Program-made: the position numbers and the translations under genes
Notes under the pieces: model-generated
What the model was told of the DNA's origin: nothing
Databases searched by the model: none
What the model saw: the letters and a program-made list of their open reading frames with translations, nothing else
Origin: Aureispira sp.
GTDB lineage: Bacteria > Bacteroidota > Bacteroidia > Chitinophagales > Saprospiraceae
Length of the DNA: 13,741 bases
Assembly: GCA_045105775.1 (NCBI GenBank)
Contig: JBGCDW010000074.1
Location: forward strand, 1-13,741
Reading direction: 5' to 3'
Shown: in pieces, positions 752 through 13,702 of the stretch
How the letters are laid out: every line of letters begins with the position of its first letter
How positions within the stretch are numbered: the first letter of the stretch is position 1

Positions 752-3700
752 TTACGATTTCTTAAACACAATTCCACCTGATTTAGAAACAGGAGCAACC
801 GCTTTTTGCTGCGCGCCTTGCTCAATTCCTTCTTCCAATGCTTGGTGAATACTTTGCAAATGATCAGAAAACTGAGACAATTGCGCCACTACCTGCACCA
901 ATGGATTATCTTTATTACCCTGCAACAGCTTATCCTTATTAAAAGCCGCTTTGATTGCCTTCCAACGAACAGCTTCTTCCTCTGTTAATGCACCAATCAA
1001 TTCTTTGAATTTGAGCATATTGGATTCTGCACTAGAGGTGAGTGTTTGCGACTCGCCCTCATAGTGTGCAATGAGCAAGGTTTGCAATTCTTTTTCATTG
1101 GTAATAGGCGTAAGCTTTTCTACCAACTTGTTCATATTTCGATAAGAACCCTGTAATTTAAAGGCAGGTTCTGTACGGAAAGCCTCTTCCATGGCTGCGG
1201 AGCGAATATACTCTAAGTTAACTTTGAGAATGGCATCTCTAATCACTAGCATACGCTCTACCAAGGCTACAAATTCATTCACTTCCTGACTGCTGTGATT
1301 GCCCTCCAATTCGGCACCATCGCGACTTCCTGTTTGAGCATATTGCACCACGGCATAAATATCCTTGGCTCCCTTAGTGGCTAGTTTTTGCAATATGGCA
1401 TTAGAAGTCAAGGAATTCTCAATATAACTCAACTCAAAAACATCTTTGGTATCTCCAATAATATCACCCAGATTGTAAATGTCAGAACGGTTGGCCAACA
1501 TGTCTGGAACTTGGAACTTGTCGCCACTTTCGGTATATGGATTACCAGCCATGACCACAGCTACTCGTTTTCCTCTCAAATCATAGGTCTTGGTTACCCC
1601 TTTGTAAATACCCTCAATCTTGCGCTGTCCATCGGTCAAAGAAATGAATTTCTGCAAAAACTCAGGATGACAGTGCTGAATATCATCCAAGTAAATCATG
1701 ATGTTATCACCCATTTCCAAGGCCAGGTTGAGTTTTTCCAGTTCCTTGGCAGCAGCAGCATTGCCCGCCTCGCTCGGATCGAGCGAAACGACATTGTGTC
1801 CTATAGCGGGGCCATTGATTTTCATAAAAATAAGTCCCAGACGATCTGCCACATACTCCATCAAGGTAGTTTTACCATAGCCAGGAGGCGAAATGAGCAA
1901 GAGCATTCCCATTCTATCCGTACGGGTATTATCACCAACAGTACCAATTTGTTTGGCCAAGTTGTCTCCAAAAATAGGCAAATACAATTGGTCAATTAAT
2001 TTGTTTCGCACAAAAGAACTCAATACTCTTGGCTTGAATTCCTCCAAACGCAATGCTTGTTTAAAGTCTTGTGTTAAGGCGCGTTTCATGGTAACAAATT
2101 GCTCATATTGGGCTACTGTTTTAGCTTGATAATAGCTCAATTTGTTCATAAAAGCATTGTAGTCCATTTGGTAAATACCACCAGACCCAATGACAGCGTG
2201 TGCCCCATGCAATCCCTTTATTTCTTGATTGGTTTTGACGTTAATAACATGGCTTTCTTGATAGTTTTGTGTAAGAATAACCACCACTGCTTCTTGCAAA
2301 TAAGAAGTATACTCCGTCAGCTTTTGCTGCTCAATAAAAGCACTCAACCATTTTTGGCACAACTCAAATTGTTGCTCCAATTGCCCTTCCAAACTTTTGA
2401 GTACAGCATTAAAAGATTCTTTGGCTTGTTGACGCTCCAAGTATTGCTTGAACTCTGTTTGCAAATCATGGGCACTGCCACTGACAATGAAATGGTTTTG
2501 TCTAGACCATTCATCAAATAAATAGCGAGCAGCAGTTGGTACCAAATGTTCGTCGAACAAAGAATATTGCTTCAAAAAATCGCGCAAACCTTCCTCTAAT
2601 TGTTCTAATAAAAAATCAAACTCCTTGGTTTGAGGAAAAACTTTACGAATCAATCCTGCACTTTTTAGCTGTTTGTCAAACGTAGTTTTATTTTCCTCCG
2701 TTATAAATTTCTGCCAATACAAAGTTGCCAAAGCTCTTGCTTTGCTCTCATACACCAACAAATCAATATACTCGTGCAAGTATAAGATAGATTCTAAGAA
2801 TTTGGCAGCATCCAAATCGTGGATACCTTTGCTGTATCCTTCCTCTTTGGTGGCTCGTTCATTGACCAATTGCTGCACATAAGGCAAGACCTCTTCCGAA
2901 GTCAATTTTTTTCTTTCTTCTTGCAATTGTAAGAACGCAATATAAGCCAAGTACTCCGCTCTATACACTTGGCTATTCTCAGAAATAAGAGCTTGCTCCC
3001 AGACCGCTTTTGTCTCTAAGAAATTAGGCTCTTCTACTTCCTCATAGAAACCTGTTCCAGTGAGGTGATAGTACATTTTTCCTTCCTTGAGTGTCATGGT
3101 CAAGCCCAATGCTTGCTTGTTGACAGAGAAGAAATGACGACCAAATTTAATGGCATTGCCATCCGCAGAGAACAAATCTTTTCTGTCCTTCAATTGGCGA
3201 ATGCTATCTTCTTGAATGGTTTTGAGACGTGTTTGTACATCATCTGCCTTGTTAGAATCGCCCAAATCTTGCAATTTTTGGATGATGTCTCTAACTTTTT
3301 CAATCATCAAATCTGCTGCAAAAAAGCCATTGATGTCGTCTATTTCCTTAAAGTTCTTGACGCGATTGGCAATACCTTTTAGGTTTCTTTCGGCAGCCGT
3401 TTGTAGGGCTGTGCTGCGCTTGTTGGTTGCCTCAATAATGGACAAGCGGCGCGATTCAAACGCATTGCTAATCGCCTCGCGTTTATCGGCAATTTTGACA
3501 ATAAACTCATCAAATTCAGCAAATTTGCTTTCCAACTCCTCTACCTGAATCATCATTTTGGTATAATACTCATCGGCCTTTTCTACGGTGTTGGCAATAT
3601 CCAAGTAGTTGATGAGTCCTTGATCTAGGAGTTTGGATTGGGCGGCAAATTCGGCTACTGCTTCTGCACCCGTCAAGTCGCGCAAGCGGCGTTTGATGGC

Positions 3701-5725
3701 TGCTTTGGCTTGGTTGAGTGTGGCAAAAATAGCCGTGATATTATCGATGATGCGTGTTGTTTGGGTGGCATCCTCAATTTTGAGATTGGAAACAATTTCG
3801 ATCAATAACTCCAACTCTTTCCCAATTTCATCAATGCGCTCCTCTAGCTTTTGACCTTGACGCGCTGTTTCTACGTCTTCAATATTGGCCTGGGCTTGGG
3901 CTACACGCTCCAAATAGGGCTGTAGAGCATTGGGCTGTAGCAAAAACTGCACACAAGATTGGGAGAGGTTGTTGCTAATGTCCATCGCTTCGGTCTCCAA
4001 TTCCTCAATCAAGGACAAATCTGTATAACGCAATGCTTTGAGAGAAATAATAGCCCCTCTAATTTTGCGCAATTCGGCCAAGTGCTGCACAAACTGATCC
4101 ACCTTGAGATAGGTGGTGCCTTTGATGACTCTGAACAAAGCCACGGCTTCCTTTTGCGTTTCGCGAATGGTTTCACGCGTGTTTTTTCGGATGTTCTGTA
4201 CCTTCTCAAACTCATCAATAGCCGTATTGGCTGATGCTCGAATGGCCGAAATAGGAGTGGATAAATTGTAGGCTTCCTCATTATCAATCCAATAATAAGA
4301 ATCTAAAATGACGGTTGCTCGTTTGTTCAAATCAAAATACAAATCATCATAACTGTCATCTTGTGCCAAGAGACTCAACAATTCTTGACACTCGGCCATA
4401 GCGCGCACTATGTCTTTATTACTAATTTTATAAATATAAGAATCAGCATGTTGAGAAGGGAGTACATTGCCTTTGATGTAAGGGGTTTGCCATACTTGTA
4501 CCAAGTGGTGTGAAGTCTTGGTGTCCTCGCTTCTGAAGTAACACAGTTCTCCATCAGGAAAAAGACTGTACCCATTACAAATAATAGGGGTGGTGACGGT
4601 TTGTTCAATAACATTGTAGGAGAGGAGTATATAGGCTCCATCTTCTGGGCTATGAAAAACATACAAATGATCTTCTCCATTGGGCGATTGAAGGTGCTGC
4701 TCAAACAGTTTGTTTTGTCCAGGTGTTTTGTCAAACATCTTAAAGTCACCTGTCTGTAAATAAAAGCCATTGGAAAAAATCAAGCCTTGTTCATTGGGCA
4801 GCAGTACCCCTGAGTGTGCTAGAGCATCGACACGCTGCACGGTTTGAAGTTTTACATTATACACAAAATACCTAAATTCTTCTTGATAAGGTTTGATGCG
4901 CAAAGCAATAAGGTTGCCCAAATCTGCATAGTTGACGGTGGCATCACTAACTTTCTGATTGGCGTGTTTGACCTCCTCTGCATAAATCCCTTTGCCTGTA
5001 TCGGTATTGTCTTCAATTTTTATGGTCAAATCTCCATCTACTGTTTCTACAAACACCTTATCTAAAATAGAGATGTGTGGATGTGGCCCTTGGCGGTACA
5101 TGTCCATACGAACGGATTGCCACTCAAATTCAAACTGATTGGGGTAACGATAGTTTTTATCACCAGGAGAGGAGTCGTAAATCAACTGGTTATCTTTGAT
5201 CTCCCATTTAAAGGTTTTTTGACCATTACCATCCTTAAACACCATATAAAAGAACGGCTCATTCTTATCACGGGCAAATTTTAGAAAATAGACTTCCTTG
5301 GAGTAACGATAAAGACTCTTGAAGTCTGCTTCAAATTTTTCACTCCCTTTGGGACGAATAAGGTCTAATCCAACTTCTTTGTAACTGTGGTCATCTTTAA
5401 ATTCATAGATGCTAAACACATCTTGCAGCTCAATGTTTTTGAGCCCCATTCTAATATTATAACCAAAAATACAATAGCGTCCAATAGAGAAAATATCTCT
5501 TGCAATACACTCGTGCTGGGTTTCAATACGTTGGTTGCTAATGAGTTTCATTTCAATAGAACCAAAAACCTCTTTTCGTGCTTGGTTGAGTTTTTCTAAA
5601 CGTCCATGTAAGTCATTGCCGTTTTTTTGCAGACGATTTTTAATAATCTCATAAGTACTTCCCTCTAATTGTTGGTTGTGCTCTGTTGTCTCTTCTGGAG
5701 TTGTTGTTGTTGTATCTTCAGCCAT
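752..5725 (-). CDS. Giant multidomain AAA+ ATPase (1657 aa). Beta-rich N-terminal region of about 470 aa, long alpha-helical/coiled-coil middle region (aa ~470-1250), and a single MoxR/AAA_5-like ATPase module (aa ~1260-1460) followed by a C-terminal helical tail
   Basis: Uninterrupted 4974-nt ORF. Walker A reads LLLISPPGYGKTTLMEY (P-loop codons at 1865..1882, aa 1282-1287). Walker B reads IMIYLDDIQH (~1672..1701). Sensor-1/helix-2-insert region VAVVMAGNPYTESGDKFQVPDMLANRSD resembles the MoxR 'ATQNP...LPEAQLDRF' block. The N-terminus is rich in aromatic residues and beta-like segments (YFLKF, FYMVFKDG, YILLSYNV, CYFRSED). The middle is E/K/Q/L-rich and helical. No SD sequence; A-rich leader. 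Confidence 0.85.
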   Translation of the reverse strand: MAEDTTTTTPEETTEHNQQLEGSTYEIIKNRLQKNGNDLHGRLEKLNQARKEVFGSIEMKLISNQRIETQHECIARDIFSIGRYCIFGYNIRMGLKNIELQDVFSIYEFKDDHSYKEVGLDLIRPKGSEKFEADFKSLYRYSKEVYFLKFARDKNEPFFYMVFKDGNGQKTFKWEIKDNQLIYDSSPGDKNYRYPNQFEFEWQSVRMDMYRQGPHPHISILDKVFVETVDGDLTIKIEDNTDTGKGIYAEEVKHANQKVSDATVNYADLGNLIALRIKPYQEEFRYFVYNVKLQTVQRVDALAHSGVLLPNEQGLIFSNGFYLQTGDFKMFDKTPGQNKLFEQHLQSPNGEDHLYVFHSPEDGAYILLSYNVIEQTVTTPIICNGYSLFPDGELCYFRSEDTKTSHHLVQVWQTPYIKGNVLPSQHADSYIYKISNKDIVRAMAECQELLSLLAQDDSYDDLYFDLNKRATVILDSYYWIDNEEAYNLSTPISAIRASANTAIDEFEKVQNIRKNTRETIRETQKEAVALFRVIKGTTYLKVDQFVQHLAELRKIRGAIISLKALRYTDLSLIEELETEAMDISNNLSQSCVQFLLQPNALQPYLERVAQAQANIEDVETARQGQKLEERIDEIGKELELLIEIVSNLKIEDATQTTRIIDNITAIFATLNQAKAAIKRRLRDLTGAEAVAEFAAQSKLLDQGLINYLDIANTVEKADEYYTKMMIQVEELESKFAEFDEFIVKIADKREAISNAFESRRLSIIEATNKRSTALQTAAERNLKGIANRVKNFKEIDDINGFFAADLMIEKVRDIIQKLQDLGDSNKADDVQTRLKTIQEDSIRQLKDRKDLFSADGNAIKFGRHFFSVNKQALGLTMTLKEGKMYYHLTGTGFYEEVEEPNFLETKAVWEQALISENSQVYRAEYLAYIAFLQLQEERKKLTSEEVLPYVQQLVNERATKEEGYSKGIHDLDAAKFLESILYLHEYIDLLVYESKARALATLYWQKFITEENKTTFDKQLKSAGLIRKVFPQTKEFDFLLEQLEEGLRDFLKQYSLFDEHLVPTAARYLFDEWSRQNHFIVSGSAHDLQTEFKQYLERQQAKESFNAVLKSLEGQLEQQFELCQKWLSAFIEQQKLTEYTSYLQEAVVVILTQNYQESHVINVKTNQEIKGLHGAHAVIGSGGIYQMDYNAFMNKLSYYQAKTVAQYEQFVTMKRALTQDFKQALRLEEFKPRVLSSFVRNKLIDQLYLPIFGDNLAKQIGTVGDNTRTDRMGMLLLISPPGYGKTTLMEYVADRLGLIFMKINGPAIGHNVVSLDPSEAGNAAAAKELEKLNLALEMGDNIMIYLDDIQHCHPEFLQKFISLTDGQRKIEGIYKGVTKTYDLRGKRVAVVMAGNPYTESGDKFQVPDMLANRSDIYNLGDIIGDTKDVFELSYIENSLTSNAILQKLATKGAKDIYAVVQYAQTGSRDGAELEGNHSSQEVNEFVALVERMLVIRDAILKVNLEYIRSAAMEEAFRTEPAFKLQGSYRNMNKLVEKLTPITNEKELQTLLIAHYEGESQTLTSSAESNMLKFKELIGALTEEEAVRWKAIKAAFNKDKLLQGNKDNPLVQVVAQLSQFSDHLQSIHQALEEGIEQGAQQKAVAPVSKSGGIVFKKS

Positions 5726-5782: not shown

Positions 5783-7606
5783 CTAAAATTTTTCGTTTAG
5801 TTGTGTTAGTTGTTTGGATAATTCTGACAATTGGTAGGTATCAACCAATTCTGTTATTTGTGGAAGAACGCTCTTTTGTATAAATTGTATTTCGTATCCT
5901 CCAAAACTACTTTCTTGCAAGTACGTCATGTATTTCTTTAAGAGTCGTGCCCCTTTTTCTTTTTGGTTGGTTTGGTAGAATTGTTTGATAATTTGCACCT
6001 GCTTGGCAACCATAACATTTATAGTCTTTGCAAAGTAGTTATACCAGTTGTTCTGTAGTTTCTTAGCTTTTTTGATTTCATTCTGCTCAATGAGTGTCTT
6101 TATAGTTTGGGTAAAACTCAAGGTAATTGAATAAAAAGTAGGAAAATCCTCTAATTCAATATCTTCAAAAACTGGCCACTTAAATTCTTGAATAAAAAAG
6201 CGATAGTTGATTAGGGCTTGCTCCTTGCTCAAGTTTTTATTATCTCTTTCTTTGTATTCAAATAATTGGTTGATCCCATATGTGTGAATATACTTTGATG
6301 CTCCAGTATTAGTCATAAAATTAGACCCAGATACTTGGTTTCCATAGCTTGGTGCAAATAGGATAGGCCGCGTCTTGTAATTAGATGCTAATATCGCTAA
6401 TAGAAGAATTTCAGAGCGTACTAGAGAGGTTTGTGGACAAATTAGCTTGGGAGCATCTGGATCGTAATGGCCCAGTACAAAGCTACGTGTCGAAGCTGTT
6501 TTGATACCCTTGCGCTTAGATGCTAATAATTTTATCAACATTTTGACAGGCCAGGCTTTTTTTTCTGTATTTTCTTCCAATAAAATATAATCGCCTTTGG
6601 GAGCTTGATAATGCTCTAAATCAAGTCCTATATTTAGGTATTTGTCTTTGTAATAAGATTGATCAGACAAATGCGCACCATAGTAATGTGCATTGAGCAA
6701 ACTTTCATTGACTATCAATACATCTTCCCGTATTTTTTTAGCTTGCTGCAAATACAACAGTGGATAAGTATCGTTATCACCGTATGTAAATAGAATGGCA
6801 TTTGGGGGACAACTCAATAAGCTATTTTTGCTAAAAGCTATGGTTGCTGGTGTATACAGTTCTTTGCCTTCAACTGTTGCCAATGCTTTTTCCTTAAACC
6901 CTAAGAAAGCTAGGCGCATACTTAGGGTTAGAATTTCATTGCAATATTTGGTATATATGCTTCCCACCACTGTTTTAAAATCAGGATCTAGTTCATTAAC
7001 TTTTTTGAAGCATTGGGCAGCTAGATTGCCATTATCAATCAAAGAATCTAGCCATTCAGGTGCTTGATTGATGAGGTGGTATTTGCCATAGTCTAAAATA
7101 TATTGAGCAGATTTAAAGGAATGTGCTCTTCCTAGAGAGTAGTAATCATCAGGACTACTTAAAGGATATTTTTTATAATAATCAATAGTTTGGACAGGCC
7201 AATTATTATCACCAAAAAAACGATTGATATTGTATTCATCCGTATGAAAATACTTGGTAGCAATAGGTCGTTTTTGGAAATGCTCCCGTTTGATTTTTAG
7301 CGGCATCGCTTCACCTTTGATGACCAATTCATCTACATAACCCTCTTTGGGCGACCAAATTAATTGCTTATTATCTGAATAAACCCAGTTTCTATCTTGA
7401 TAATGGCCAACAGTAATCCAAAAACCTTGGGTATCTTTTAGAACATTGAGTCGAGTCATTCGATCCAATTTTATTGAGCAAATCCCCTTTTTTACAACAT
7501 GTTCTACTACTTCATGATACAATGGAAAATCACGGGGCAGTTGTGCCCAGAGGGTACAAGATAAATAGCTAATTAATAAAGTGGTATAGAAAAGCTTTAA
7601 TAGCAT
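5783..7606 (-). CDS. Secreted or periplasmic protein of unknown function (607 aa) with an N-terminal signal peptide
   Basis: Long ORF lying between the flotillin gene and the ATPase gene with short gaps (68 nt upstream, 57 nt downstream). N-terminus MLLKLFYTTLLISYLSCTLWA|QLP has the n/h/c regions of a Sec signal peptide with an AxA-like LWA cleavage site. I recognise no catalytic motif with confidence (TYGDNDTYP and HYDPDAP are possible metal-binding patches). Same strand and spacing as its neighbours, so it is inferred to be co-transcribed. Confidence 0.8.
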   Translation of the reverse strand: MLLKLFYTTLLISYLSCTLWAQLPRDFPLYHEVVEHVVKKGICSIKLDRMTRLNVLKDTQGFWITVGHYQDRNWVYSDNKQLIWSPKEGYVDELVIKGEAMPLKIKREHFQKRPIATKYFHTDEYNINRFFGDNNWPVQTIDYYKKYPLSSPDDYYSLGRAHSFKSAQYILDYGKYHLINQAPEWLDSLIDNGNLAAQCFKKVNELDPDFKTVVGSIYTKYCNEILTLSMRLAFLGFKEKALATVEGKELYTPATIAFSKNSLLSCPPNAILFTYGDNDTYPLLYLQQAKKIREDVLIVNESLLNAHYYGAHLSDQSYYKDKYLNIGLDLEHYQAPKGDYILLEENTEKKAWPVKMLIKLLASKRKGIKTASTRSFVLGHYDPDAPKLICPQTSLVRSEILLLAILASNYKTRPILFAPSYGNQVSGSNFMTNTGASKYIHTYGINQLFEYKERDNKNLSKEQALINYRFFIQEFKWPVFEDIELEDFPTFYSITLSFTQTIKTLIEQNEIKKAKKLQNNWYNYFAKTINVMVAKQVQIIKQFYQTNQKEKGARLLKKYMTYLQESSFGGYEIQFIQKSVLPQITELVDTYQLSELSKQLTQLNEKF

Positions 7607-7674: not shown

Positions 7675-10329
7675 TTAGAGTACTTTATCGGCAGCATCAT
7701 TGCCCATACCTAAGCTTTTGACCGTTTCCATCAAGTTTTGAATGACTCCTTTATCGTCGCCTACAGCTTTGTTGTACAACTGCATCAATAGGGCAGACAA
7801 GGTTACATTTTTGATGGTTTCAGTACCAATATCATACTGGCTTACAAAACCTCCAATACGCGATAGAATATTATCATCACCATCACCTAGCAAGGCACCT
7901 TTTACTACCTGCAATTCTTCACTGCTTTCCATTAACTTATCAATGGTTTTACCACGCTTAATAGCATTGATAATATTGTTGAAGAATTCTGTTTCACCGC
8001 CTACAATGTCAATATTAGCATTGTTGAAGGCCCCAGCTAGGATACGAGCGTGAGACTCTGCAATACCCAATTCTGCTTGGATTTCTGCAATTCTGATTTC
8101 TCTTTGCTGCTCTAGGCGCAATTTGAACTCTTCGTGCTCTTTGCCTACACCATCCAATAGCTTCATGGCATTGGCTTTGGCTTCAATACCTTTGGCTTCT
8201 GAAATCAATTTTTCACCAATAGTTTTGGCTTCGGCTAGTCCATGCTGCTCTAGTGTTTGAGCTTCGGCCAAACCTTTTTGTTCTTTGACCTTAGCCTCTG
8301 CTAGACCTTGTTGTTCGGTTACTTGCGCTTGAGCCAAACCTTCTTTTTCTAGGCGTAGAGCCTCGGCCAAACCTTGCTGCTCAGTTACTTTGGCTTCGGC
8401 CAAACCTTGCTCTTCAATAATTTTGGCTTCAATCAAACCTTGCTGTTCTTTAACTTTAGCAGCAGCTAGACCTTGTTGTTCGGTTACTTGCGCTTGAGCC
8501 AAACCTTCTTTTTCTAGGCGTAGAGCTTTTGCCAAGCCTTGTTGCTCCGTAACTTTGGCTTCGGCCAAACCTTGTTGCTCGGTTATTTGAGCTTTGGTTA
8601 AGCCTTTCTGCTCGATTACTTTGGCTTCGGCCAAGCCTTGCTGCTCTACAATTTTGGCTTCAGCCAGACCTTGCTGCTCGGTTACTTTGGCCGCTGCCAA
8701 TCCTTTCTTTTCCGTAGTTTGAGCCTCGGCCAAACCTTGCTGCTCAATAACTTTGGCTTTGGCCAAACCCTGACGCTCAATTATTTCTGCCTCTGTATTA
8801 CCTTTTTCTTTGATAATATCAACATCCACCATGCCTCTAGCACGTTCGGCTTCGGCTTTCATTTCAATGGCTTTGGCTTCAGCTTCAGCACGTTTTTGTA
8901 AAATATTGGCTTGTGTTATGCCCTCCATTTCTTTGGCTTCGGCTTTGGCTTTCATCACATCTGCTTCGGCCAAACCAACGGTTGCTTCTTCTGCCGCCAA
9001 TGCCTCTGCATTGATTTTACGTGCTTCGGCATCTTTTTGAGTAGCAGCTTTTTTAGCATCGGCCTCAATCACAATTTGCTGTGCTTTTACTTCTGCGGCT
9101 AGTTTATCTGATTCTGCACGACGTGTTTGAGTGATTTTTTGCATTTCAGCTTCTTTAGAAGCTTCAATTTCCGCTACTTTTTTGGCACGTTCGGCAGCAG
9201 CCAATTGCTTAACATCTTCAATTTTTTGATCTTCCTCTACGGTCTTTTTTTCCTCGGCTTTACGCTCTTTGATAATAACTTGGATGTCGCGTTTTTTCTC
9301 TTCTAGGATTTGCTCTTTTTCAATTTCTGCCAATCCTACCGTACGTTCTTTGTCTGCAATTGCTTTTTGTTCCTCTGTTTCTACGCGTTGAATTTGAACT
9401 TTTTCTAATTCTTCTTTATTGAGTCGAGCAAGGATGATTTGACGTTCTTTGTCTTCTTCTGCTTCCCCCAGCTTTTGTTCGGATTGCTTGCGAACCAGTT
9501 CAGTTTGCAAATCTTTTTCAATGACGACTTGTTTGGCCGCATTTTCCTGTTCACTAGTCAATTCTCGAATTTCACGTTTTTGTTTTTGTTCTTCTTCGAT
9601 TTGCTGTTTTTCTAAGCGAATGATGTTTTTTCTAGCCTCTACATCTTGCTCTTTGATGGTTTGTTCTCGATTGCGTCGAATTTGATTGGTGCGTTCTTGC
9701 TCTACAGACGTAAGCTCTTCAATCTTCTTGATACCTTGTGCATCTAGGATATTCTTTTGATCTAAATCAGATAAAGAGGTTTGCTCTAAGTAGTCAATAG
9801 CACAGTCATCGAGTTCATAACCATTGAGGTCTGTACCAATTGTTTTTAGAATTTCTTTCTTGAATTCCTCTCTTTGTGTATACAAGTTGATGAAATCAAA
9901 GCCTTTACCCACGGTTTTGAGTGCTTCGGAGAATTTGGCATCAAACAGATTGTTTAAGGTTTCTTGTTGAGAGGCACGTTGGCAACCGATGGTTTGTGCT
10001 ACTTCCTTAACAGAAGCCTCATCCTTGTTGATCCGCACAAAGAAGACCACCTTGATGTCTGCACGCATGTTGTCTTTACAAATCAATCCTTCTGACCCAG
10101 TACGATGTACCTCAATGGTTTTGAGAGAGATGTCCATTTCTTCTACCGTGTGCATGATCGGGAATACAAACAAACTGCCGTCTAAGACAACTTTGGTACC
10201 ACCCGCACCTGTACGTACCAAGGCTTTACCCTGTGGAGATTTACGCAGGGATTTTAATAAGACTAATATACCCCCTGTAGTGATAACAAGGAGGATAGCC
10301 AAAAATATATACAAAACAGATTCACCCAT
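7675..10329 (-). CDS. Flotillin-family SPFH/band-7 protein (YqiK/FloT-like), lengthened to 884 aa by a tandem 11-residue-repeat stalk
   Basis: N-terminal TM helix (VLYIFLAILLVITTGGILVLL). The SPFH core (aa ~30-215; KVVLDGSLFVFPIMHTVEEMDISLKTIEV...ADIKVVFFVRI...) has the typical flotillin beta-alpha pattern. A long E/K/Q-rich coiled coil follows. Next come about 17 hendecad repeats E-Q-Q-G-L-A-E-A-K-V-T. The C-terminus is flotillin-like (GAFNNANIDIVGGETEFF..., LLGDGDDNIL...GG). Confidence 0.88.
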   Translation of the reverse strand: MGESVLYIFLAILLVITTGGILVLLKSLRKSPQGKALVRTGAGGTKVVLDGSLFVFPIMHTVEEMDISLKTIEVHRTGSEGLICKDNMRADIKVVFFVRINKDEASVKEVAQTIGCQRASQQETLNNLFDAKFSEALKTVGKGFDFINLYTQREEFKKEILKTIGTDLNGYELDDCAIDYLEQTSLSDLDQKNILDAQGIKKIEELTSVEQERTNQIRRNREQTIKEQDVEARKNIIRLEKQQIEEEQKQKREIRELTSEQENAAKQVVIEKDLQTELVRKQSEQKLGEAEEDKERQIILARLNKEELEKVQIQRVETEEQKAIADKERTVGLAEIEKEQILEEKKRDIQVIIKERKAEEKKTVEEDQKIEDVKQLAAAERAKKVAEIEASKEAEMQKITQTRRAESDKLAAEVKAQQIVIEADAKKAATQKDAEARKINAEALAAEEATVGLAEADVMKAKAEAKEMEGITQANILQKRAEAEAKAIEMKAEAERARGMVDVDIIKEKGNTEAEIIERQGLAKAKVIEQQGLAEAQTTEKKGLAAAKVTEQQGLAEAKIVEQQGLAEAKVIEQKGLTKAQITEQQGLAEAKVTEQQGLAKALRLEKEGLAQAQVTEQQGLAAAKVKEQQGLIEAKIIEEQGLAEAKVTEQQGLAEALRLEKEGLAQAQVTEQQGLAEAKVKEQKGLAEAQTLEQHGLAEAKTIGEKLISEAKGIEAKANAMKLLDGVGKEHEEFKLRLEQQREIRIAEIQAELGIAESHARILAGAFNNANIDIVGGETEFFNNIINAIKRGKTIDKLMESSEELQVVKGALLGDGDDNILSRIGGFVSQYDIGTETIKNVTLSALLMQLYNKAVGDDKGVIQNLMETVKSLGMGNDAADKVL
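8180..8790 (-). repeat. Tandem 33-nt (11-codon) repeat array, about 17-18 units, inside the flotillin CDS. It contains a 165-bp higher-order duplication (8300..8361 is identical to 8465..8526)
   Basis: The protein reads E[QK][QK]GL[AT][EK]A[KQ][VI][TVK] repeated head to tail. At DNA level, the 62-bp string gctagaccttgttgttcggttacttgcgcttgagccaaaccttctttttctaggcgtagagc occurs twice, exactly 165 bp (5 units) apart. The flanking units are also near-identical. Confidence 0.85.
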
Positions 10330-10597
10330 GATTAATTGTTTTTAGTTAGTTGAGTAATAAGGCTTTGGCACAAAGGGTAATGCCAAAATATGAAATTGTT
10401 AGATTGAAAATTATTTTTTACAACTATTAACGCTTATCCCGAATAAAGTTGTATGGTTCGCTGTAGCATTTTTTCCTTTATCTGCATCATCGAAAGACGT
10501 ACAGCCTCTCCGAGGATGCACGTTTTCGCTTCTTCGCTAAAGATAAAAATCAAAACAGCTCTCTTTTCATAAATTCTATTCGTGATAACCGTTATTG

Positions 10598-11335
10598 TTA
10601 ATGCTGTGTCCAGCGTTGGACTAGGTATGTTTTTTTCTCTTCGTCTTCTTGTATGATAATCACTTCTGTACCTTTCTCTATGAGTTCACCTGTATCAGAA
10701 CGAACTCTTAAAGTAATAATAGATTCGTCAATAGTGGCTTTGAGCTGGCCCGTTTCCTCTCCTTTGATACTAGTGAGCAAAGTGCCTATTTTGCCATTAA
10801 TAACCAATGGTTTGGCAAAGGTATTTCCATGTTTAAACAAAGGAACCAAAGGCATGGTCAAGAATTTGGCAGCAAAAAGACTCGCCAATACAAGAGGCCC
10901 AAAGAGCAAAGCTGCCGTTCCCAAAGAATTGGTTGGATTGATCCAACTACTCTCATGGTTGCAGTAGACGGATAAAGACCATAAGGATAAAATAAACATG
11001 GACAATAAGACCATAAAAGGAACACGCCCTAAATTAAAAAAGCGTAAACCACCAAGTAAAATAGAACCAGCAGTAATTCCTGTATCGGCATTTGCATCTA
11101 CATCCGCATCCGCATCAACGTCTACATCGGCATCCACGTCTATATCAACATCCACATCAACGTCTACGTCGGCATCCACATCTATATCAAAGCTTTTTAG
11201 GCCTACCACACCTAAAATAACGGTTAGCCAGTAAAAACAGATGATTCCCAATAAAATGGTTAAAACAAAGTTGGGGGTGGATAAGGCTGCAGTGAGTAAC
11301 TCTTTCATAGGTTCATATTGTAATAAGTATAACAA
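10598..11335 (-). CDS. YqiJ/NfeD-like inner-membrane protein: N-terminal multi-TM domain plus C-terminal NfeD-type OB-fold beta domain, carrying an internal (Asp-Val)n dipeptide-repeat tract
   Basis: Several hydrophobic helices (FVLTILLGIICFYWLTVILGVVGL, ILLGGLRFFNLGRVPFMVLLSMFILSLWSLSV, AALLFGPLVLASLFAAKFLTMPLVPLF). The C-terminal ~70 aa (GKIGTLLTSIKGEETGQLKATIDESIITLRVRSDTGELIEKGTEVIIIQEDEEKKTYLVQRW) have the short all-beta character of NfeD/YqiJ C-terminal domains. The gene lies directly upstream of a flotillin gene, which is the conserved yqiJ-yqiK / nfeD-flotillin arrangement. Confidence 0.72.
   Translation of the reverse strand: MLYLLQYEPMKELLTAALSTPNFVLTILLGIICFYWLTVILGVVGLKSFDIDVDADVDVDVDVDIDVDADVDVDADADVDANADTGITAGSILLGGLRFFNLGRVPFMVLLSMFILSLWSLSVYCNHESSWINPTNSLGTAALLFGPLVLASLFAAKFLTMPLVPLFKHGNTFAKPLVINGKIGTLLTSIKGEETGQLKATIDESIITLRVRSDTGELIEKGTEVIIIQEDEEKKTYLVQRWTQH
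11086..11190 (-). repeat. Imperfect hexanucleotide (GAYRTN)n tandem repeat of about 17 units, encoding DIDVDADVDVDVDVDIDVDADVDVDADADVDANAD in the YqiJ-like protein
   Basis: Plus strand reads catccgcatccgcatcaacgtctacatcggcatccacgtctatatcaacatccacatcaacgtctacgtcggcatccacatctatatc. The encoded protein has a strict alternation of Asp with Val/Ala/Ile over 35 residues, located after the first TM helix. Confidence 0.85.
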
Positions 11336-11535
11336 GTAAGAAATACAAGCAATAATACTAAAATCCAGTAAATAAAAAGACCAACTTTCTTAATTAAATA
11401 ATTGATAGTAAAACTATTTTTAATAAAAGCTTAACTTTTGTTGTTGTATTGTTAATACATATAATTGGGCAAATTAGTTTCCTTGTGTGTTATTATTTTG
11501 GAATAGGTTTAATATTCTTAGACTACTTTAGTATT

Positions 11536-11576
11536 AAAAAAATGAGTCTTCCCATTTTATGCACGGGATGACTCAT
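11536..11576 (-). terminator. Second terminator-like hairpin plus U-tract, paralogous to the one at 11761..11797
   Basis: Stem atgagtcttccca / tgggatgactcat (11542..11554 pairs with 11564..11576; 12 of 13 positions pair, one t-t mismatch) around a 9-nt loop. A U7 tract follows on the minus strand (plus-strand A7 at 11536..11542). It shares the left arm 'aaaaaaatgagtc' and the 'ttatg' loop core with the downstream copy. Confidence 0.55.
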
Positions 11577-11760: not shown

Positions 11761-11797
11761 CAAAAAAATGAGTCATCCTGTTTATGAATGACTCATA
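11761..11797 (-). terminator. Rho-independent terminator closing the three-gene module at 13702..11837
   Basis: On the minus strand, atgagtcat (11796..11788) and atgactcat (11776..11768) form a perfect 9-bp stem with an 11-nt loop. A U7 tract follows immediately (plus-strand A7 at 11762..11768). The element begins 40 nt after the lipoprotein stop codon. Confidence 0.7.
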
Positions 11798-11836: not shown

Positions 11837-12325
11837 TTACAACCATCCAGTAATAAGATCACCTTTTAGCATAGGTGTTACAGACTGTACTTTTTCATCT
11901 TTCATTTTGATGTAATACTTAGGTTTGTCTTGCACAAAAACAACAAAAACATCTTTTAGTGGAATATCATTTTCCAATAAATCTTTATTTGCATCTGCGT
12001 TCTTTTTTTCTGCTGTTTCCCAAGTATGAATTTCACATTTTTGATTGTTTAGATCCATTCTTAATCCTGTTAATTGGGCGACATAAGCATCTAATAAGAA
12101 TTTACTGTCTTTAGAAGAATCTTGTTTTACTTGATCTATGTATAAAAAATGTTCATCTATTATATTATCAATACTTAGAGCATCATTTTTTAATGCACTA
12201 AATAATTTTTCTACTTTTTTAATATCTTGATCCATTATATTGTTTTTATGAATTTTGTTATTAGAGTCACAACTAATTATTGCTATACTTAATAATAGTG
12301 ATAATAAATTAAAGTAATTTAGCAT
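11837..12325 (-). CDS. Small lipoprotein of unknown function (162 aa)
   Basis: Signal peptide with lipobox MLNYFNLLSLLLSIAIIS|C (I-I-S-C fits [LVI][ASTVI][GAS]C). The start codon is 5 nt downstream of the preceding gene's stop, indicating translational coupling. A hairpin plus U-tract terminator follows directly. Confidence 0.7.
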   Translation of the reverse strand: MLNYFNLLSLLLSIAIISCDSNNKIHKNNIMDQDIKKVEKLFSALKNDALSIDNIIDEHFLYIDQVKQDSSKDSKFLLDAYVAQLTGLRMDLNNQKCEIHTWETAEKKNADANKDLLENDIPLKDVFVVFVQDKPKYYIKMKDEKVQSVTPMLKGDLITGWL

Positions 12326-12330
12326 GTTTT

Positions 12331-13134
12331 CTATTTTTGTTTACTGCTTCCATTTCCACCAGTTGTATTGGAGGTAACTTGACCATTGTGATCCTCTTTC
12401 AAATCTTCTCCTAGATCTCCGGGATTATGTCCACCACCAAATGGCCATGTACCCCTTTGAGATGAAACATTCCAACCTGCAGCTCCTGCCACTTCAATGC
12501 CAAAATCTGTGCAGTTGTAGGTATTGAGATTATAAGTATTTGACCCATTATTCTCTACATACTTTAATGCATCAAAAAATTGCTTGTGAGTTATCTCTCT
12601 AGTTGCTTGTACTTCTGCACCGTGTCCTGTATCAGATTGGAGCATTCCCCCTACTTCGGGTGCTCTAGGGTCAACACCACTACTAGGATAAAAACCTATG
12701 GTGGCTTCAACCTTGGTTCCATCAGTATTAATTTTCACAAGATGCACAAATGTATGGCCTACATCTACTGAAGTGAGGGGAGAACCTTCATAGGTATCTC
12801 TATCTCCTCCTGAACCTGGCTGGTCTACTAAGATAGAAATTTTATACGTTTTACCTTCTTTACAATCGTAAAATTGTTTAGTAAAGGTATTCCCTCCAGA
12901 GCAAGGTGCTTTATTATTTGAGTTTTGTTTGCTATTTGTATTGTGTTTTGTTCTCAGTTCGGCGAGTTTAGTCTGCACTAAGTTAATAGTATTTTGCATA
13001 CTATCTAACTGCTTCTGCTCGTCCGTATCAACAAAGCCATCTTCTGCAAACAAATTCTGATACTTAACTAAAGTATCTTTCATTGATTGTACTTCTTTTT
13101 CAAGTTTTTCTATTTTTTCAGCTTGAGTTGCCAT
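12331..13134 (-). CDS. N-terminal coiled-coil segment fused to a PPPDE/DeSI-type (DUF862-like) permuted-papain-fold cysteine peptidase domain (267 aa); no signal peptide
   Basis: N-terminal heptad-like helical segment (aa 1-65). Domain aa ~95-225 has the His-before-Cys order of permuted papain folds. The TYKISILVDQPGSGG block matches the DeSI 'KLYVYDL..G' start. The VDVGHTFVHLV block matches 'GIWHTSIVV' (His127, codon 12754..12756). The YNLNTYNCTDFGIEVAGAAG block matches DeSI-1 'YNLFEHNCNTFSNEVAQFL' almost residue for residue (Cys208, codon 12511..12513). The C-terminal tail is Gly/Asn/Thr-rich and low-complexity. Confidence 0.78.
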   Translation of the reverse strand: MATQAEKIEKLEKEVQSMKDTLVKYQNLFAEDGFVDTDEQKQLDSMQNTINLVQTKLAELRTKHNTNSKQNSNNKAPCSGGNTFTKQFYDCKEGKTYKISILVDQPGSGGDRDTYEGSPLTSVDVGHTFVHLVKINTDGTKVEATIGFYPSSGVDPRAPEVGGMLQSDTGHGAEVQATREITHKQFFDALKYVENNGSNTYNLNTYNCTDFGIEVAGAAGWNVSSQRGTWPFGGGHNPGDLGEDLKEDHNGQVTSNTTGGNGSSKQK

Positions 13135-13162
13135 GTGTTAATTTTTTTAGTCGGGGGAATGA

Positions 13163-13702
13163 TTATAAATTTAGAGCTTTTACGATTGCATCAAGTCGGT
13201 CGCTAATCTTGCCAATGTTTTCATTGATTTTTGCTCTAGCTTTTTCATTGACCCTTTTGCCAGGTTTTGAGCTGTCAGAGCCTTGTGCTACGGCCTCTTT
13301 GAGTGCGTTTAGTTGTGTTTGTAGTTCATCGATTTGTGCTTGCTCTTCCTCATCGATTACGCCGTCTTTTTTAGCTTCTTCGATGAGCTTGCTTAAAGCC
13401 GTTTCATATTTGGCAATATTGGCGTTCAATGTATCTTGAGGAGCTTTATCTTTGACTTTATCCATCTTGTCAATGCCCTCTCTCATTTGACCCATTTGGG
13501 TGCTTCTTTTAGCTTTATTGGCTTCAAGTGTAGCTGTATCTTGGTCCTCTCCTGTAGTTTCTGTTTCATCATCTGATACACTAGAAGCGTTAGGGTTGTA
13601 TAAGCGTAGAATTTCGCCATTTTTGGCAGCATAATCAGTATCGGCAAAAATTTGTTCCAAAGAACCTTTATCTTCTCCTTCTACTTTACCTTCTAAGGAC
13701 AT
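13163..13702 (-). CDS. Acidic coiled-coil protein of unknown function (179 aa as annotated; may extend N-terminally beyond the window end)
   Basis: ORF with a Met start at 13702. The 39 nt from that Met to the window end are also open in frame, so the true start may lie outside the window. The sequence is strongly acidic and helical (EEEQAQIDELQTQLNALKEAVAQG). It shares the motif G-[VF]-[IV]-D-x-[ED]-E-Q-x-Q-[IL]-D-x-[LM]-Q-[TN]-x-[LI]-N with the N-terminus of the downstream peptidase-domain protein. Confidence 0.65.
   Translation of the reverse strand: MSLEGKVEGEDKGSLEQIFADTDYAAKNGEILRLYNPNASSVSDDETETTGEDQDTATLEANKAKRSTQMGQMREGIDKMDKVKDKAPQDTLNANIAKYETALSKLIEEAKKDGVIDEEEQAQIDELQTQLNALKEAVAQGSDSSKPGKRVNEKARAKINENIGKISDRLDAIVKALNL

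Follow-up and report, generated by a model that had tools for sequence, protein, structure and literature searches.

An alternating aspartate–hydrophobic loop as a putative hallmark of YqiJ/NfeD-like partners of bacterial flotillins

A 13,741-nucleotide contig of Aureispira sp. (JBGCDW010000074.1; hereafter the window, meaning this whole stretch at its full length) carries a minus-strand operon whose first gene encodes a YqiJ/NfeD-like membrane protein with a tract of regularly alternating Asp and hydrophobic residues. We conclude with high confidence that this (Asp-X)n tract is real, under selection, a feature of the protein family and so placed that it would face the cytoplasm. Comparison of homologous sequences indicates that such an (Asp–hydrophobic)n loop is the hallmark of a large clade of YqiJ/NfeD-like flotillin partners, most of them uncharacterised. 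Both the kind of protein and the type of operon are already known; the loop as a conserved, selected hallmark is apparently the new part. Searches of the literature on YqiJ, DUF1449, NfeD/SPFH cryo-electron microscopy (cryo-EM), the string DVDVDVDV and YuaF/NfeD2/FloT yielded no description of the tract, an absence from the library that is not in itself proof. The tract and its gene are placed as follows.

11084 to 11188, minus strand: the (Asp-X)n tract, residues D41–D75 (from the translation, codon listing, Tandem Repeats Finder (TRF) and offset identities).
10598 to 11308, minus strand: the YqiJ/NfeD-like gene, 236 amino acids plus stop, with its ATG at 11308–11306 (from the open reading frame (ORF) list, Pfam, homologs and hhalign).

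Translation of the minus strand of 10598–11335 gives D41–D75 as DIDVDADVDVDVDVDIDVDADVDVDADADVDANAD, 35 residues that are preceded by MKELL...GLKSF and followed by TGITAGS. The 18 polar positions are occupied by 17 Asp and one Asn, and the 17 residues between them are nine Val, six Ala and two Ile. The preliminary description of this DNA was therefore accurate on the alternation of Asp with Val, Ala or Ile over 35 residues, on the count of 17 Asp and on the location right after the first transmembrane (TM) helix: the tract sets in 4–5 residues past TM1 (residues 11–35 in the AlphaFold2 (AF2) model). Its coordinates, 11086–11190, were shifted by 2 nt from the exact coding span. No other (acidic-X)n≥5 run occurs across the six reading frames of the window, and the naive probability of 17 Asp fixed at alternate positions in a window-sized sequence is ~1e-17. 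The gene itself is real, because the protein has 941 homologs at E≤1e-3 (the best, E=1.8e-120, from Aureispira (Saprospiraceae, Bacteroidota)) and a 93%-identical ortholog, L009, in an Aureispira metagenome-assembled genome. A plus-strand ORF at 10998–11234, considered as a Ser/Thr-rich gene, was rejected as an antisense reading of the repeat in this well-supported gene.

The AF2 model, built from a 67-sequence alignment with a mean predicted local distance difference test (pLDDT) score of 83.9, contains helices 11–35, 98–117 and 129–151 and then strands within 174–232, which corresponds to three TM helices and a soluble C-terminal β domain. Around the tract, the protein is divided into the following parts, the last being an oligonucleotide/oligosaccharide-binding (OB) fold.

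11204 to 11278, minus strand: TM1, residues 11–35, with invariant Y26-W27 and G33 (AF2 pLDDT above 90, hydropathy 2.2–2.4, invariant columns).
11015 to 11071, minus strand: short helix 80–90 and the L-R-F-F-N-L-G-R-V-P-F motif (AF2, conserved columns).
10856 to 11017, minus strand: TM2 (98–117), a loop free of Lys and Arg (118–128) and TM3 (129–151, with invariant K148) (AF2, hydropathy, Lys + Arg counts).
10613 to 10789, minus strand: C-terminal NfeD-type OB-fold, residues 174–232 (AF2 strands with pLDDT above 90, Foldseek, profile).

The short helix and its motif, in which F90, F91, N92, G94, V96, P97, F98 and M99 are invariant in one homolog alignment, shut the acidic loop and run into TM2. 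The C-terminal domain has the five-stranded OB-fold of the NfeD superfamily (PH0471, YuaF and PH1510-C type), and Foldseek matched it in the PDB to YuaF (2K14, E=1.4e-4, TM-target 0.69), to 3CP0 (E=3.8e-4, 0.80) and to PH1510-C (3WWV, E=6.7e-4, 0.80). A PDB sequence search gave no match at E≤10, PF07290 and NCBIfam gave no match to the protein, and Pfam YqiJ_N (PF21001) scored E=3e-4 and 21.4 bits, under the 23-bit gathering cut-off. Alignment of the 67-sequence profile with Escherichia coli YqiJ by hhalign gave a probability of 94.6% (E=7.2e-8) over 130 columns of the TM2–TM3–OB region. This alignment and the NfeD-type OB-fold matches identify the protein as the YqiJ/NfeD-like partner of an SPFH protein, as had been proposed from the sequence; it is a divergent YqiJ/NfeD member within a known operon type. 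Close homologs are named ‘NfeD family’, ‘DUF1449 family’ or ‘OB-fold-containing’ protein in their sources, and most tract-bearing homologs are without a precomputed Pfam match. Two short YqiJ-like fragments (P0400 and P0401, in the cluster of P0024) are named ‘acetyl/propionyl-CoA carboxylase alpha subunit’ by JGI/IMG, which is probably an annotation error.

To avoid circularity, homologs were sought with a query lacking the tract (residues 76–236), which returned 626 matches among 1.84 billion representatives; linker statistics refer to 134 of these matches with recognisable anchors, the linker being the segment from TM1 to FFN. Asp makes up 23.7% of linker residues, and the Asp:Glu ratio is 6.8:1 within the linker versus 0.7:1 in the rest of the same proteins. 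The strict two-residue polar/hydrophobic alternation expected of an amphipathic β-strand, noted earlier for this one sequence, is strongly conserved: period-2 power is 1.92 versus 0.19 in shuffled linkers (~10-fold), 99 of 122 linkers exceed their own shuffle more than threefold, and power at periods of 3 and 3.6 (~0.10) lies under the shuffled period-2 value. The residue between two Asp is hydrophobic in 87% of cases (V 30%, A 20%, L 14.5%, I 10%, F 7%, M 5%), and a residue flanked by two hydrophobics is Asp in 63%, followed by E, G, H and S. The median linker has 12 acidic residues, which places the 17 Asp of the window near the top of the range; across genomes, tracts contain 7–29.

Among the 120 best full-length matches, nearly all bear a tract near residue 40, with lengths of 6–44 residues. 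The tract was also found at 73 genomic loci, which belong to numerous Bacteroidota families and to a single alphaproteobacterium; the 80 related loci referred to below were retrieved by the pattern FFN[LF]GxVPF, taken from a 13-sequence alignment, and this sample is biased towards Bacteroidota. The preliminary description did not associate such a tract with characterised YqiJ/NfeD proteins. For E. coli YqiJ, which has only a vestige, this is correct, yet nearly all of the wider family carries the tract at the same place with variable length, so that E. coli-type YqiJ is the exception. Approximately 25% of linkers carry at least three His interleaved in the same register (for example DFDMHHDVPTDIHHGVHADIGGDVHHD from Saprospira). 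In the Saprospira lineage (L014, L016, L018 and L019; P0045 cluster), the Asp tract is mostly exchanged for an Asp/His-rich segment, such as DIHVHHGGIHADIGGDVHHDVPH, which keeps the polar/hydrophobic register of the tract and suggests responsiveness to metal or pH.

At the DNA level, the tract had been described as an imperfect hexanucleotide repeat that is prone to slippage with in-frame length changes. The term hexanucleotide repeat is acceptable only loosely. TRF reports an array at 11084–11190 with a best period of 42 (2.5 copies, 84% match) and weaker periods of 18 and 24, and no period-6 array for the tract DNA; identity at an offset of 6 is 68%, and the longest perfect hexanucleotide tandem extends over 2.7 units (GATGCGGATGCGGATG). 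The longest exact repeat measures 13 nt, at an offset of 42, and a 14-codon (42-nt) duplication inside the tract, DIDVDADVDVDVDV then DIDVDADVDVDADA, is the latest event visible in it. Codon usage is mixed (Asp: GAT 13, GAC 4; Val: GTG, GTA and GTT three each), with a GAT:GAC ratio that matches other genes of the window. With such codons and at most 2.7 perfect units, this DNA is a poor substrate for slippage, and a long perfect short-tandem run, as in slippage-driven contingency loci, is not present in the window tract.

In-frame length change, by contrast, was correctly anticipated and is seen among relatives, the window itself being one allele. Within 90%-identity clusters, near-identical proteins of 265/263, 244/248 and 230/234 amino acids differ only by one or two VD/AD units. 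Linker length differs in 120 of 201 pairs that are at least 80% identical outside the linker, with differences of 2 and 4 residues being the commonest. Overall, 211 differences are even versus 174 odd, and a clear excess of 2 and 4 is confined to close pairs; this parity signal is blurred by the Gly/Ser tail behind the tract. The number of D-X units drifts freely via in-frame indels of one or more units. The sequence between these events is constrained: over 32 codons aligned with L009, there are 11 synonymous changes and one Ile-to-Val replacement, plus one 6-nt indel, and the Asp and hydrophobic positions are therefore both under purifying selection. Because residues are conserved while codons diverge, the alternating pattern is a selected one and no fresh product of slippage.

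These data bear on the notion that the tract is a functionless low-complexity expansion, tolerated in a loop and upheld only by replication slippage. The in-frame polymorphism of near-identical alleles and the 120 close pairs of unequal linker length are what such neutrality would predict. However, practically all non-enterobacterial members recovered by the tract-free query have a tract in the same place, the 11:1 ratio of synonymous to replacement changes indicates purifying selection, the window DNA lacks the perfect repeats to sustain slippage, and the Asp positions have not decayed to N, G, E, A or Y, the outcome that neutral drift predicts. We give neutral expansion only the slimmest of chances.

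Which side of the membrane the tract occupies was addressed with the positive-inside rule. The mean number of Lys + Arg per sequence in the alignment is 0.37 for the N-terminal tail, 1.42 for the tract loop, 0.07 for the TM2–TM3 loop and 3.7 for TM3 (which includes the invariant K148) together with the stretch behind it. Combined with three TM helices, these counts place the N terminus outside and the C terminus inside, and hence the tract and the OB-fold in the cytoplasm. The flotillin encoded by the next gene has an N-terminal TM segment followed by KSLRKSPQGK, and the tract is thus predicted to share its side of the membrane with the SPFH domain of the flotillin. This predicted topology agrees with the cytoplasm-facing cage of QmcA–YbbJ. 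As for membrane embedding, which would be at odds with so many Asp residues, the hydropathy of the tract is ~0 and AF2 models a loop here that connects TM1 with an interfacial helix; the tract is not membrane-embedded.

The opposite topology, with the N terminus inside, would turn the tract into a periplasmic low-affinity Ca2+/Mg2+-binding ribbon on the outer face of the inner membrane, which is close to the cation-ribbon idea of the preliminary description. Proton-motive force can aid the translocation of acidic segments, and record titles show that the organisms are mostly marine or aquatic, exposed to high Mg2+/Ca2+. Nevertheless, with three TM helices this arrangement would put the OB-fold in the periplasm, away from an SPFH domain whose TM segment precedes a Lys/Arg-rich stretch, and the Lys + Arg counts of loop 2, TM3 with its following stretch and the tract loop fit the reverse orientation. 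As a fourth TM helix, residues 73–97, with a hydropathy of ~0.75 and two Arg, are too polar and too short. We therefore consider a periplasmic ribbon very improbable.

Our preferred reading, which is tentative and to which we give slightly less than an even chance, is that the tract acts as an amphipathic, β-prone loop, gated by charge and able to bind cations or protons, which lines a flotillin-enclosed membrane patch. The anatomy on which this reading builds is well supported: the protein starts outside and continues through TM1, an acidic loop of ~40–60 residues, the interfacial helix with FFNxGxVPF, TM2 and TM3 to the cytoplasmic OB-fold, and the acidic loop accordingly hangs from the inner membrane face on the SPFH side of the flotillin. 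Selection keeps Asp, not Glu, at alternate positions, with small or β-branched hydrophobic residues (V > A > L > I > F) between them. As both of its ends would be pinned to the membrane, the loop would have to fold back on itself as a polyanionic tether in the shape of a hairpin. As long as the pH is neutral and few counter-ions are bound, repulsion between the charges would hold this tether extended and disordered, a state with which the low confidence of AF2 is consistent. Neutralisation by protons, by Mg2+, Ca2+ or other metal ions, by polyamines or by a basic partner would collapse it to an amphipathic β-hairpin or sheet, in which carboxylates alone make up one face and aliphatic side chains the other. 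Given a cytoplasmic location, the relevant ligands would be Mg2+, polyamines, protons and transient Ca2+, and not the cations of the envelope. If the stoichiometry were like that of the QmcA–YbbJ cage, several hundred carboxylates would lie beneath the enclosed patch of each assembly, where they may act as a cation- or proton-binding, charge-gated assembly element that tunes the flotillin microdomain, either in its lipid/ion environment or in its state of assembly.

Designed peptides provide a precedent for such behaviour. On its own, Ac-V(DV)4-NH2 stays in solution, and addition of cationic (Orn-Val)4 turns it into amyloid (PMC5770463); the designed hairpin VD1, (VD)4V-DPPT-(DV)4, is listed as gelling in acetate with 150 mM NaCl (table in PMC12940918). 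In the natural proteins, the preference for Asp over Glu, the hydrophobic register and the in-register His variants argue for ligand and side-chain specificity over bulk charge, and the His residues point to proton or metal binding and not mere spacing.

Several observations weigh against this proposal. In the AF2 monomer, residues 48–75 are coil with pLDDT below 50 (41–54 over the tract) and no β-hairpin is predicted, although a monomer model cannot address oligomeric or ligand-bound sheets. The DxDxDG calcium motif (D-x-[DNS]-x-[DNS]-G) is absent from the linker of the window and occurs in only 29 of 128 family linkers; this number does exceed the 9.7 ± 2.9 found in shuffled linkers, mainly since a Gly-rich tail closes the alternation. 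The window tract has no turn residue (Gly, Pro or Asn) short of its last few positions. Its length is loosely constrained in the family: genomes range from 7 to 29 acidic residues, alleles that are nearly identical differ by ±2–4 residues and Enterobacteriaceae have almost none, which speaks against an exact structural role. The searchable literature holds no metal-binding, pH-response or topology experiment on any member of the family, and both the assumed stoichiometry and the placement of the loop with respect to the cage are carried over from another SPFH–NfeD pair.

Some of the same observations would be explained if the tract were a passive acidic spacer or entropic bristle in which only net negative charge and flexibility matter. 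It might keep TM1 from TM2/3, repel anionic lipids or nucleic acids, or fix the N-out topology, and its period-2 pattern would be a by-product of GAT-GTN unit duplication. Consistent with a spacer are the low-confidence coil, the extreme length tolerance with population-level variation of one or two VD units, the recent 42-nt duplication within the window tract, and the fact that enterobacterial YqiJ manages without it. However, pure charge and flexibility would accept Glu, Ser, Gly and Pro, which does not agree with the skewed Asp:Glu ratio confined to the linker or with an X position that is 87% hydrophobic. Moreover, Asp and X positions are both kept despite synonymous divergence, and the pattern persists in lineages without shared DNA repeat similarity, with His substituting in register. 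We consider a mere spacer rather unlikely.

The gene neighbourhood provides a further setting in which the tract can be interpreted. The YqiJ-like gene opens the operon, with the flotillin start 268 nt downstream, and is succeeded by the following elements, the last of which lies upstream.

7675 to 10329, minus strand: flotillin-like SPFH protein, 884 amino acids, with an N-terminal TM segment, Band_7 at residues 31–213 and a long coiled-coil (Pfam, NCBIfam, translation).
5783 to 7606, minus strand: 607-amino-acid protein with an N-terminal signal/TM segment, whose orthologs are labelled TMEM260_2 (PF28495) (precomputed Pfam of orthologs).
752 to 5725, minus strand: DUF3686 + DUF7902 + AAA+ ATPase, 1657 amino acids, the last gene of the module (Pfam).
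11768 to 11796, minus strand: terminator-like hairpin with an 11-pair stem and T7, tail TTTTTTGACA (terminator scan).

A flotillin gene lies directly downstream of the YqiJ-like gene in 80 of 80 related loci, and a DUF3686 ATPase within 8 kb downstream in 59 of them. Pfam assigns Band_7 (E=2.5e-14) to the flotillin, which also has a FloT-like match in NCBIfam, and DUF3686 (E=6.6e-162), DUF7902 (E=3.7e-27) and AAA (E=1.4e-6) to the ATPase, so that the window contains the known cluster of flotillin, YqiJ/YuaF-like 3TM protein and large AAA+ ATPase. The 884-residue flotillin is presumed to be the cage partner of the YqiJ-like protein, and from gene order and the QmcA–YbbJ precedent we infer that the two may form a complex. 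PspA_IM30 and CesT_Tir have no match on any ORF of the 13.7-kb window, even at E≤1, and without the CesT/Tir–PspA dyad the operon represents an ‘abbreviated’ form; in the relative L008, genes for CesT/Tir, PspA and PLD proteins stand just upstream.

This constant company raises the question of whether the tract is a docking strand that engages a basic surface of an operon partner by β-augmentation or electrostatic zippering. The partner might be the flotillin SPFH domain, a PspA-like protein, or the β-propeller or pore of the DUF3686 AAA+ ATPase, in which last case the tract would be a handle for remodelling or extracting the complex. The invariable flotillin and the frequent ATPase favour docking, as does the finding that V(DV)4 needs a complementary cationic partner to form an ordered β-sheet (PMC5770463). 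Operons of this type, some of which also include PspA and CesT/Tir, have been proposed to drive ATP-dependent sub-membrane remodelling (PMC11237479), and docking is made attractive by E. coli YqiJK, which lacks both the tract and the ATPase. On the other hand, neither the flotillin nor the 607-residue protein shows an alternating basic tract that would complement it, and a fixed partner surface should limit tract length more than is seen. Tract length does not depend on a nearby ATPase, as loci without a detectable ATPase in 8 kb keep long tracts (median 14 acidic residues versus 10.5 with the ATPase), and the correlation of acidic count with flotillin length is weak (rho = 0.28, p = 0.017, from non-independent data); both comparisons carry little information. 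Docking is thus unlikely to be what the tract is for.

The remaining features of the operon differ in how widely they are shared. The 607-residue protein has no match in the local Pfam copy, and its gene occurs in 3 of 80 related loci, all of the Aureispira lineage, in one to three tandem copies (for example L002, 14094–19701); by its distribution it is a lineage-specific accessory of the operon. Within the flotillin gene, 8257–8805 comprises ~13–17 tandem 33-nt units (with 99- and 165-nt periods as well) that encode an 11-residue repeat, approximately EQQGLAEAKVT, in the coiled-coil. Orthologs range from ~700 to 884 amino acids, and the repeats probably lengthen the wall of the flotillin cage. 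An extra small Band_7 gene (183–226 amino acids) stands between the yqiJ-like gene and the long flotillin in several Aureispira relatives, L002 (10765–11316), L004 (10741–11301) and L005 (10955–11635), where the window (10330–10597) and L009 have just a gap of 110–270 nt. Pfam describes DUF3686 as an ‘ATPase involved in DNA repair’; the membrane flotillin/NfeD operon that houses it, in the window as in 59 of 80 relatives, is more in keeping with a part in membrane remodelling.

Upstream of the yqiJ-like gene, the terminator-like hairpin sets the operon apart from three minus-strand ORFs of 162, 267 and 179 amino acids (11837–13702), which have no significant family match. Weak matches were of coiled-coil type, with a sub-threshold YmfL-like phage-regulator match on the 179-residue ORF. 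These ORFs are not conserved beside the operon, and relatives have 4HBT and FAD-binding genes there. A second, similar hairpin with T7, recognised by eye at ~11535–11576 on the minus strand, shares the stem core ATGAGTC...GACTCAT with the first. Both lie in the 500-nt AT-rich gap between the 162-residue ORF and the yqiJ-like gene, and only the first met the loop-length rule of the scan; they resemble intrinsic terminators in tandem, or else duplicates of one small repeat element. A reading of the locus as a defence system was dropped, as neither the YqiJ-like protein nor the flotillin had a PADLOC match and the other proteins gave nothing above noise.

In two Aureispira relatives, L005 and L006, the operon has an insertion that separates the TMEM260_2-like gene from the DUF3686 ATPase and consists of a gene for a 913-residue Peptidase_C2 (calpain-family) protein (16143–18884) and a 200-residue ORF. 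A calpain-like protease beside a protein with a poly-Asp loop is a possible calcium link. A bolder view, which we regard as distinctly improbable, would make the poly(Asp-X) loop the ion-influx sensor of a flotillin/PspA/AAA+ membrane-damage response. After a breach, influx of Ca2+/Mg2+ or protons would neutralise the loops, the resulting β-sheet would nucleate or lock the flotillin cage round the lesion, and the PspA/ESCRT-III-like protein and the DUF3686 AAA+ ATPase would remodel and later disassemble the assembly. If true, prokaryotes would have their own counterpart of the membrane repair by ESCRT-III/Vps4 that Ca2+ triggers. The hints, which are circumstantial, are PspA and CesT/Tir in the operon of some relatives, the Peptidase_C2 insertion and the His-rich variants of Saprospira.

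NfeD/YqiJ partners of bacterial SPFH/flotillin proteins are widespread and their role has been called unclear (PMC13086221); the tract provides a concrete entry to their function. The only well-studied YqiJ, that of E. coli, is without the most conspicuous conserved feature of the wider family, and the large clade that has it is mostly missed by current Pfam thresholds. Multiplied by the copy number of a flotillin cage, ~10–30 carboxylates per subunit constitute a testable handle on microdomain function, for which the candidate roles are to buffer and sense ions or protons, to sort lipids by their charge, or triggered assembly. Because the motif matches designed charge-gated β-hairpin peptides, its biophysics can be tested directly with synthetic peptides.

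Among known systems, E. coli YqiJ (DUF1449; PF21001 + PF07290), the partner of the flotillin YqiK, is similar in its three TM helices and C-terminal OB-fold, in an (L/F)xNxGRxP motif before TM2 and in a gene immediately upstream of a flotillin-family gene. It differs in its linker, which is just GALDAHLDHYDS, with 3–5 acidic residues and 3–5 His throughout Enterobacteriaceae and the vestige LDAHLDHYDS, and yqiJK has no DUF3686 ATPase alongside. A search with E. coli YqiJ reached Enterobacteriaceae only, and enterobacterial YqiJ is the sole characterised YqiJ type in this comparison. YbbJ–QmcA and Bacillus subtilis YuaF/NfeD2–FloT likewise have a membrane-anchored OB-fold partner encoded beside an SPFH protein. 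By cryo-EM, 26 heterodimers of QmcA–YbbJ build a cage that faces the cytoplasm (Tan et al. 2024, as cited in PMC13086221), and a cytoplasm-facing SPFH–NfeD assembly is also known from PMC2636767. By contrast, no acidic alternating loop is reported for YbbJ or YuaF/NfeD2 in the literature searched. YuaF was compared by its OB domain, and its sequence similarity to the window protein is marginal (profile E=0.095). The operon corresponds to the PspA-linked flotillin/YqiJ–YuaF/novel AAA+ ATPase operons, whose ‘abbreviated’ forms without PspA are widespread (Ravi, Aravind et al., mSystems 2024, PMC11237479); the window is such a form and L008 a full one. The words ‘acidic’ and ‘aspartate’ are absent from PMC11237479, and the tract is not described there.

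The closest likeness in sequence pattern is to V(DV)4 and the MAX1-family peptide VD1, which share the (Val-Asp)n alternation, are soluble or unfolded when charged and become β-sheet, amyloid or gel on charge compensation. These peptides are synthetic, 9–20 residues long and, in the hairpin design, provided with an engineered D-Pro-Pro turn; the natural tract has 35 residues, is membrane-anchored at both ends and lacks a central turn, and its behaviour is judged from theirs by analogy. More distant are the SD-repeats of staphylococcal Clf/Sdr proteins and the (Asp-Y)n repeats of mollusc shell matrix proteins, which are extracellular, much longer and unrelated in fold and context, and in which the partner residue is Ser or Gly and no amphipathic face results. 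They nevertheless have Asp at every second residue, imperfect DNA repeats and in-frame length variation in common with the tract, and (Asp-Y)n has been proposed to form a Ca2+-ordering β-sheet face.

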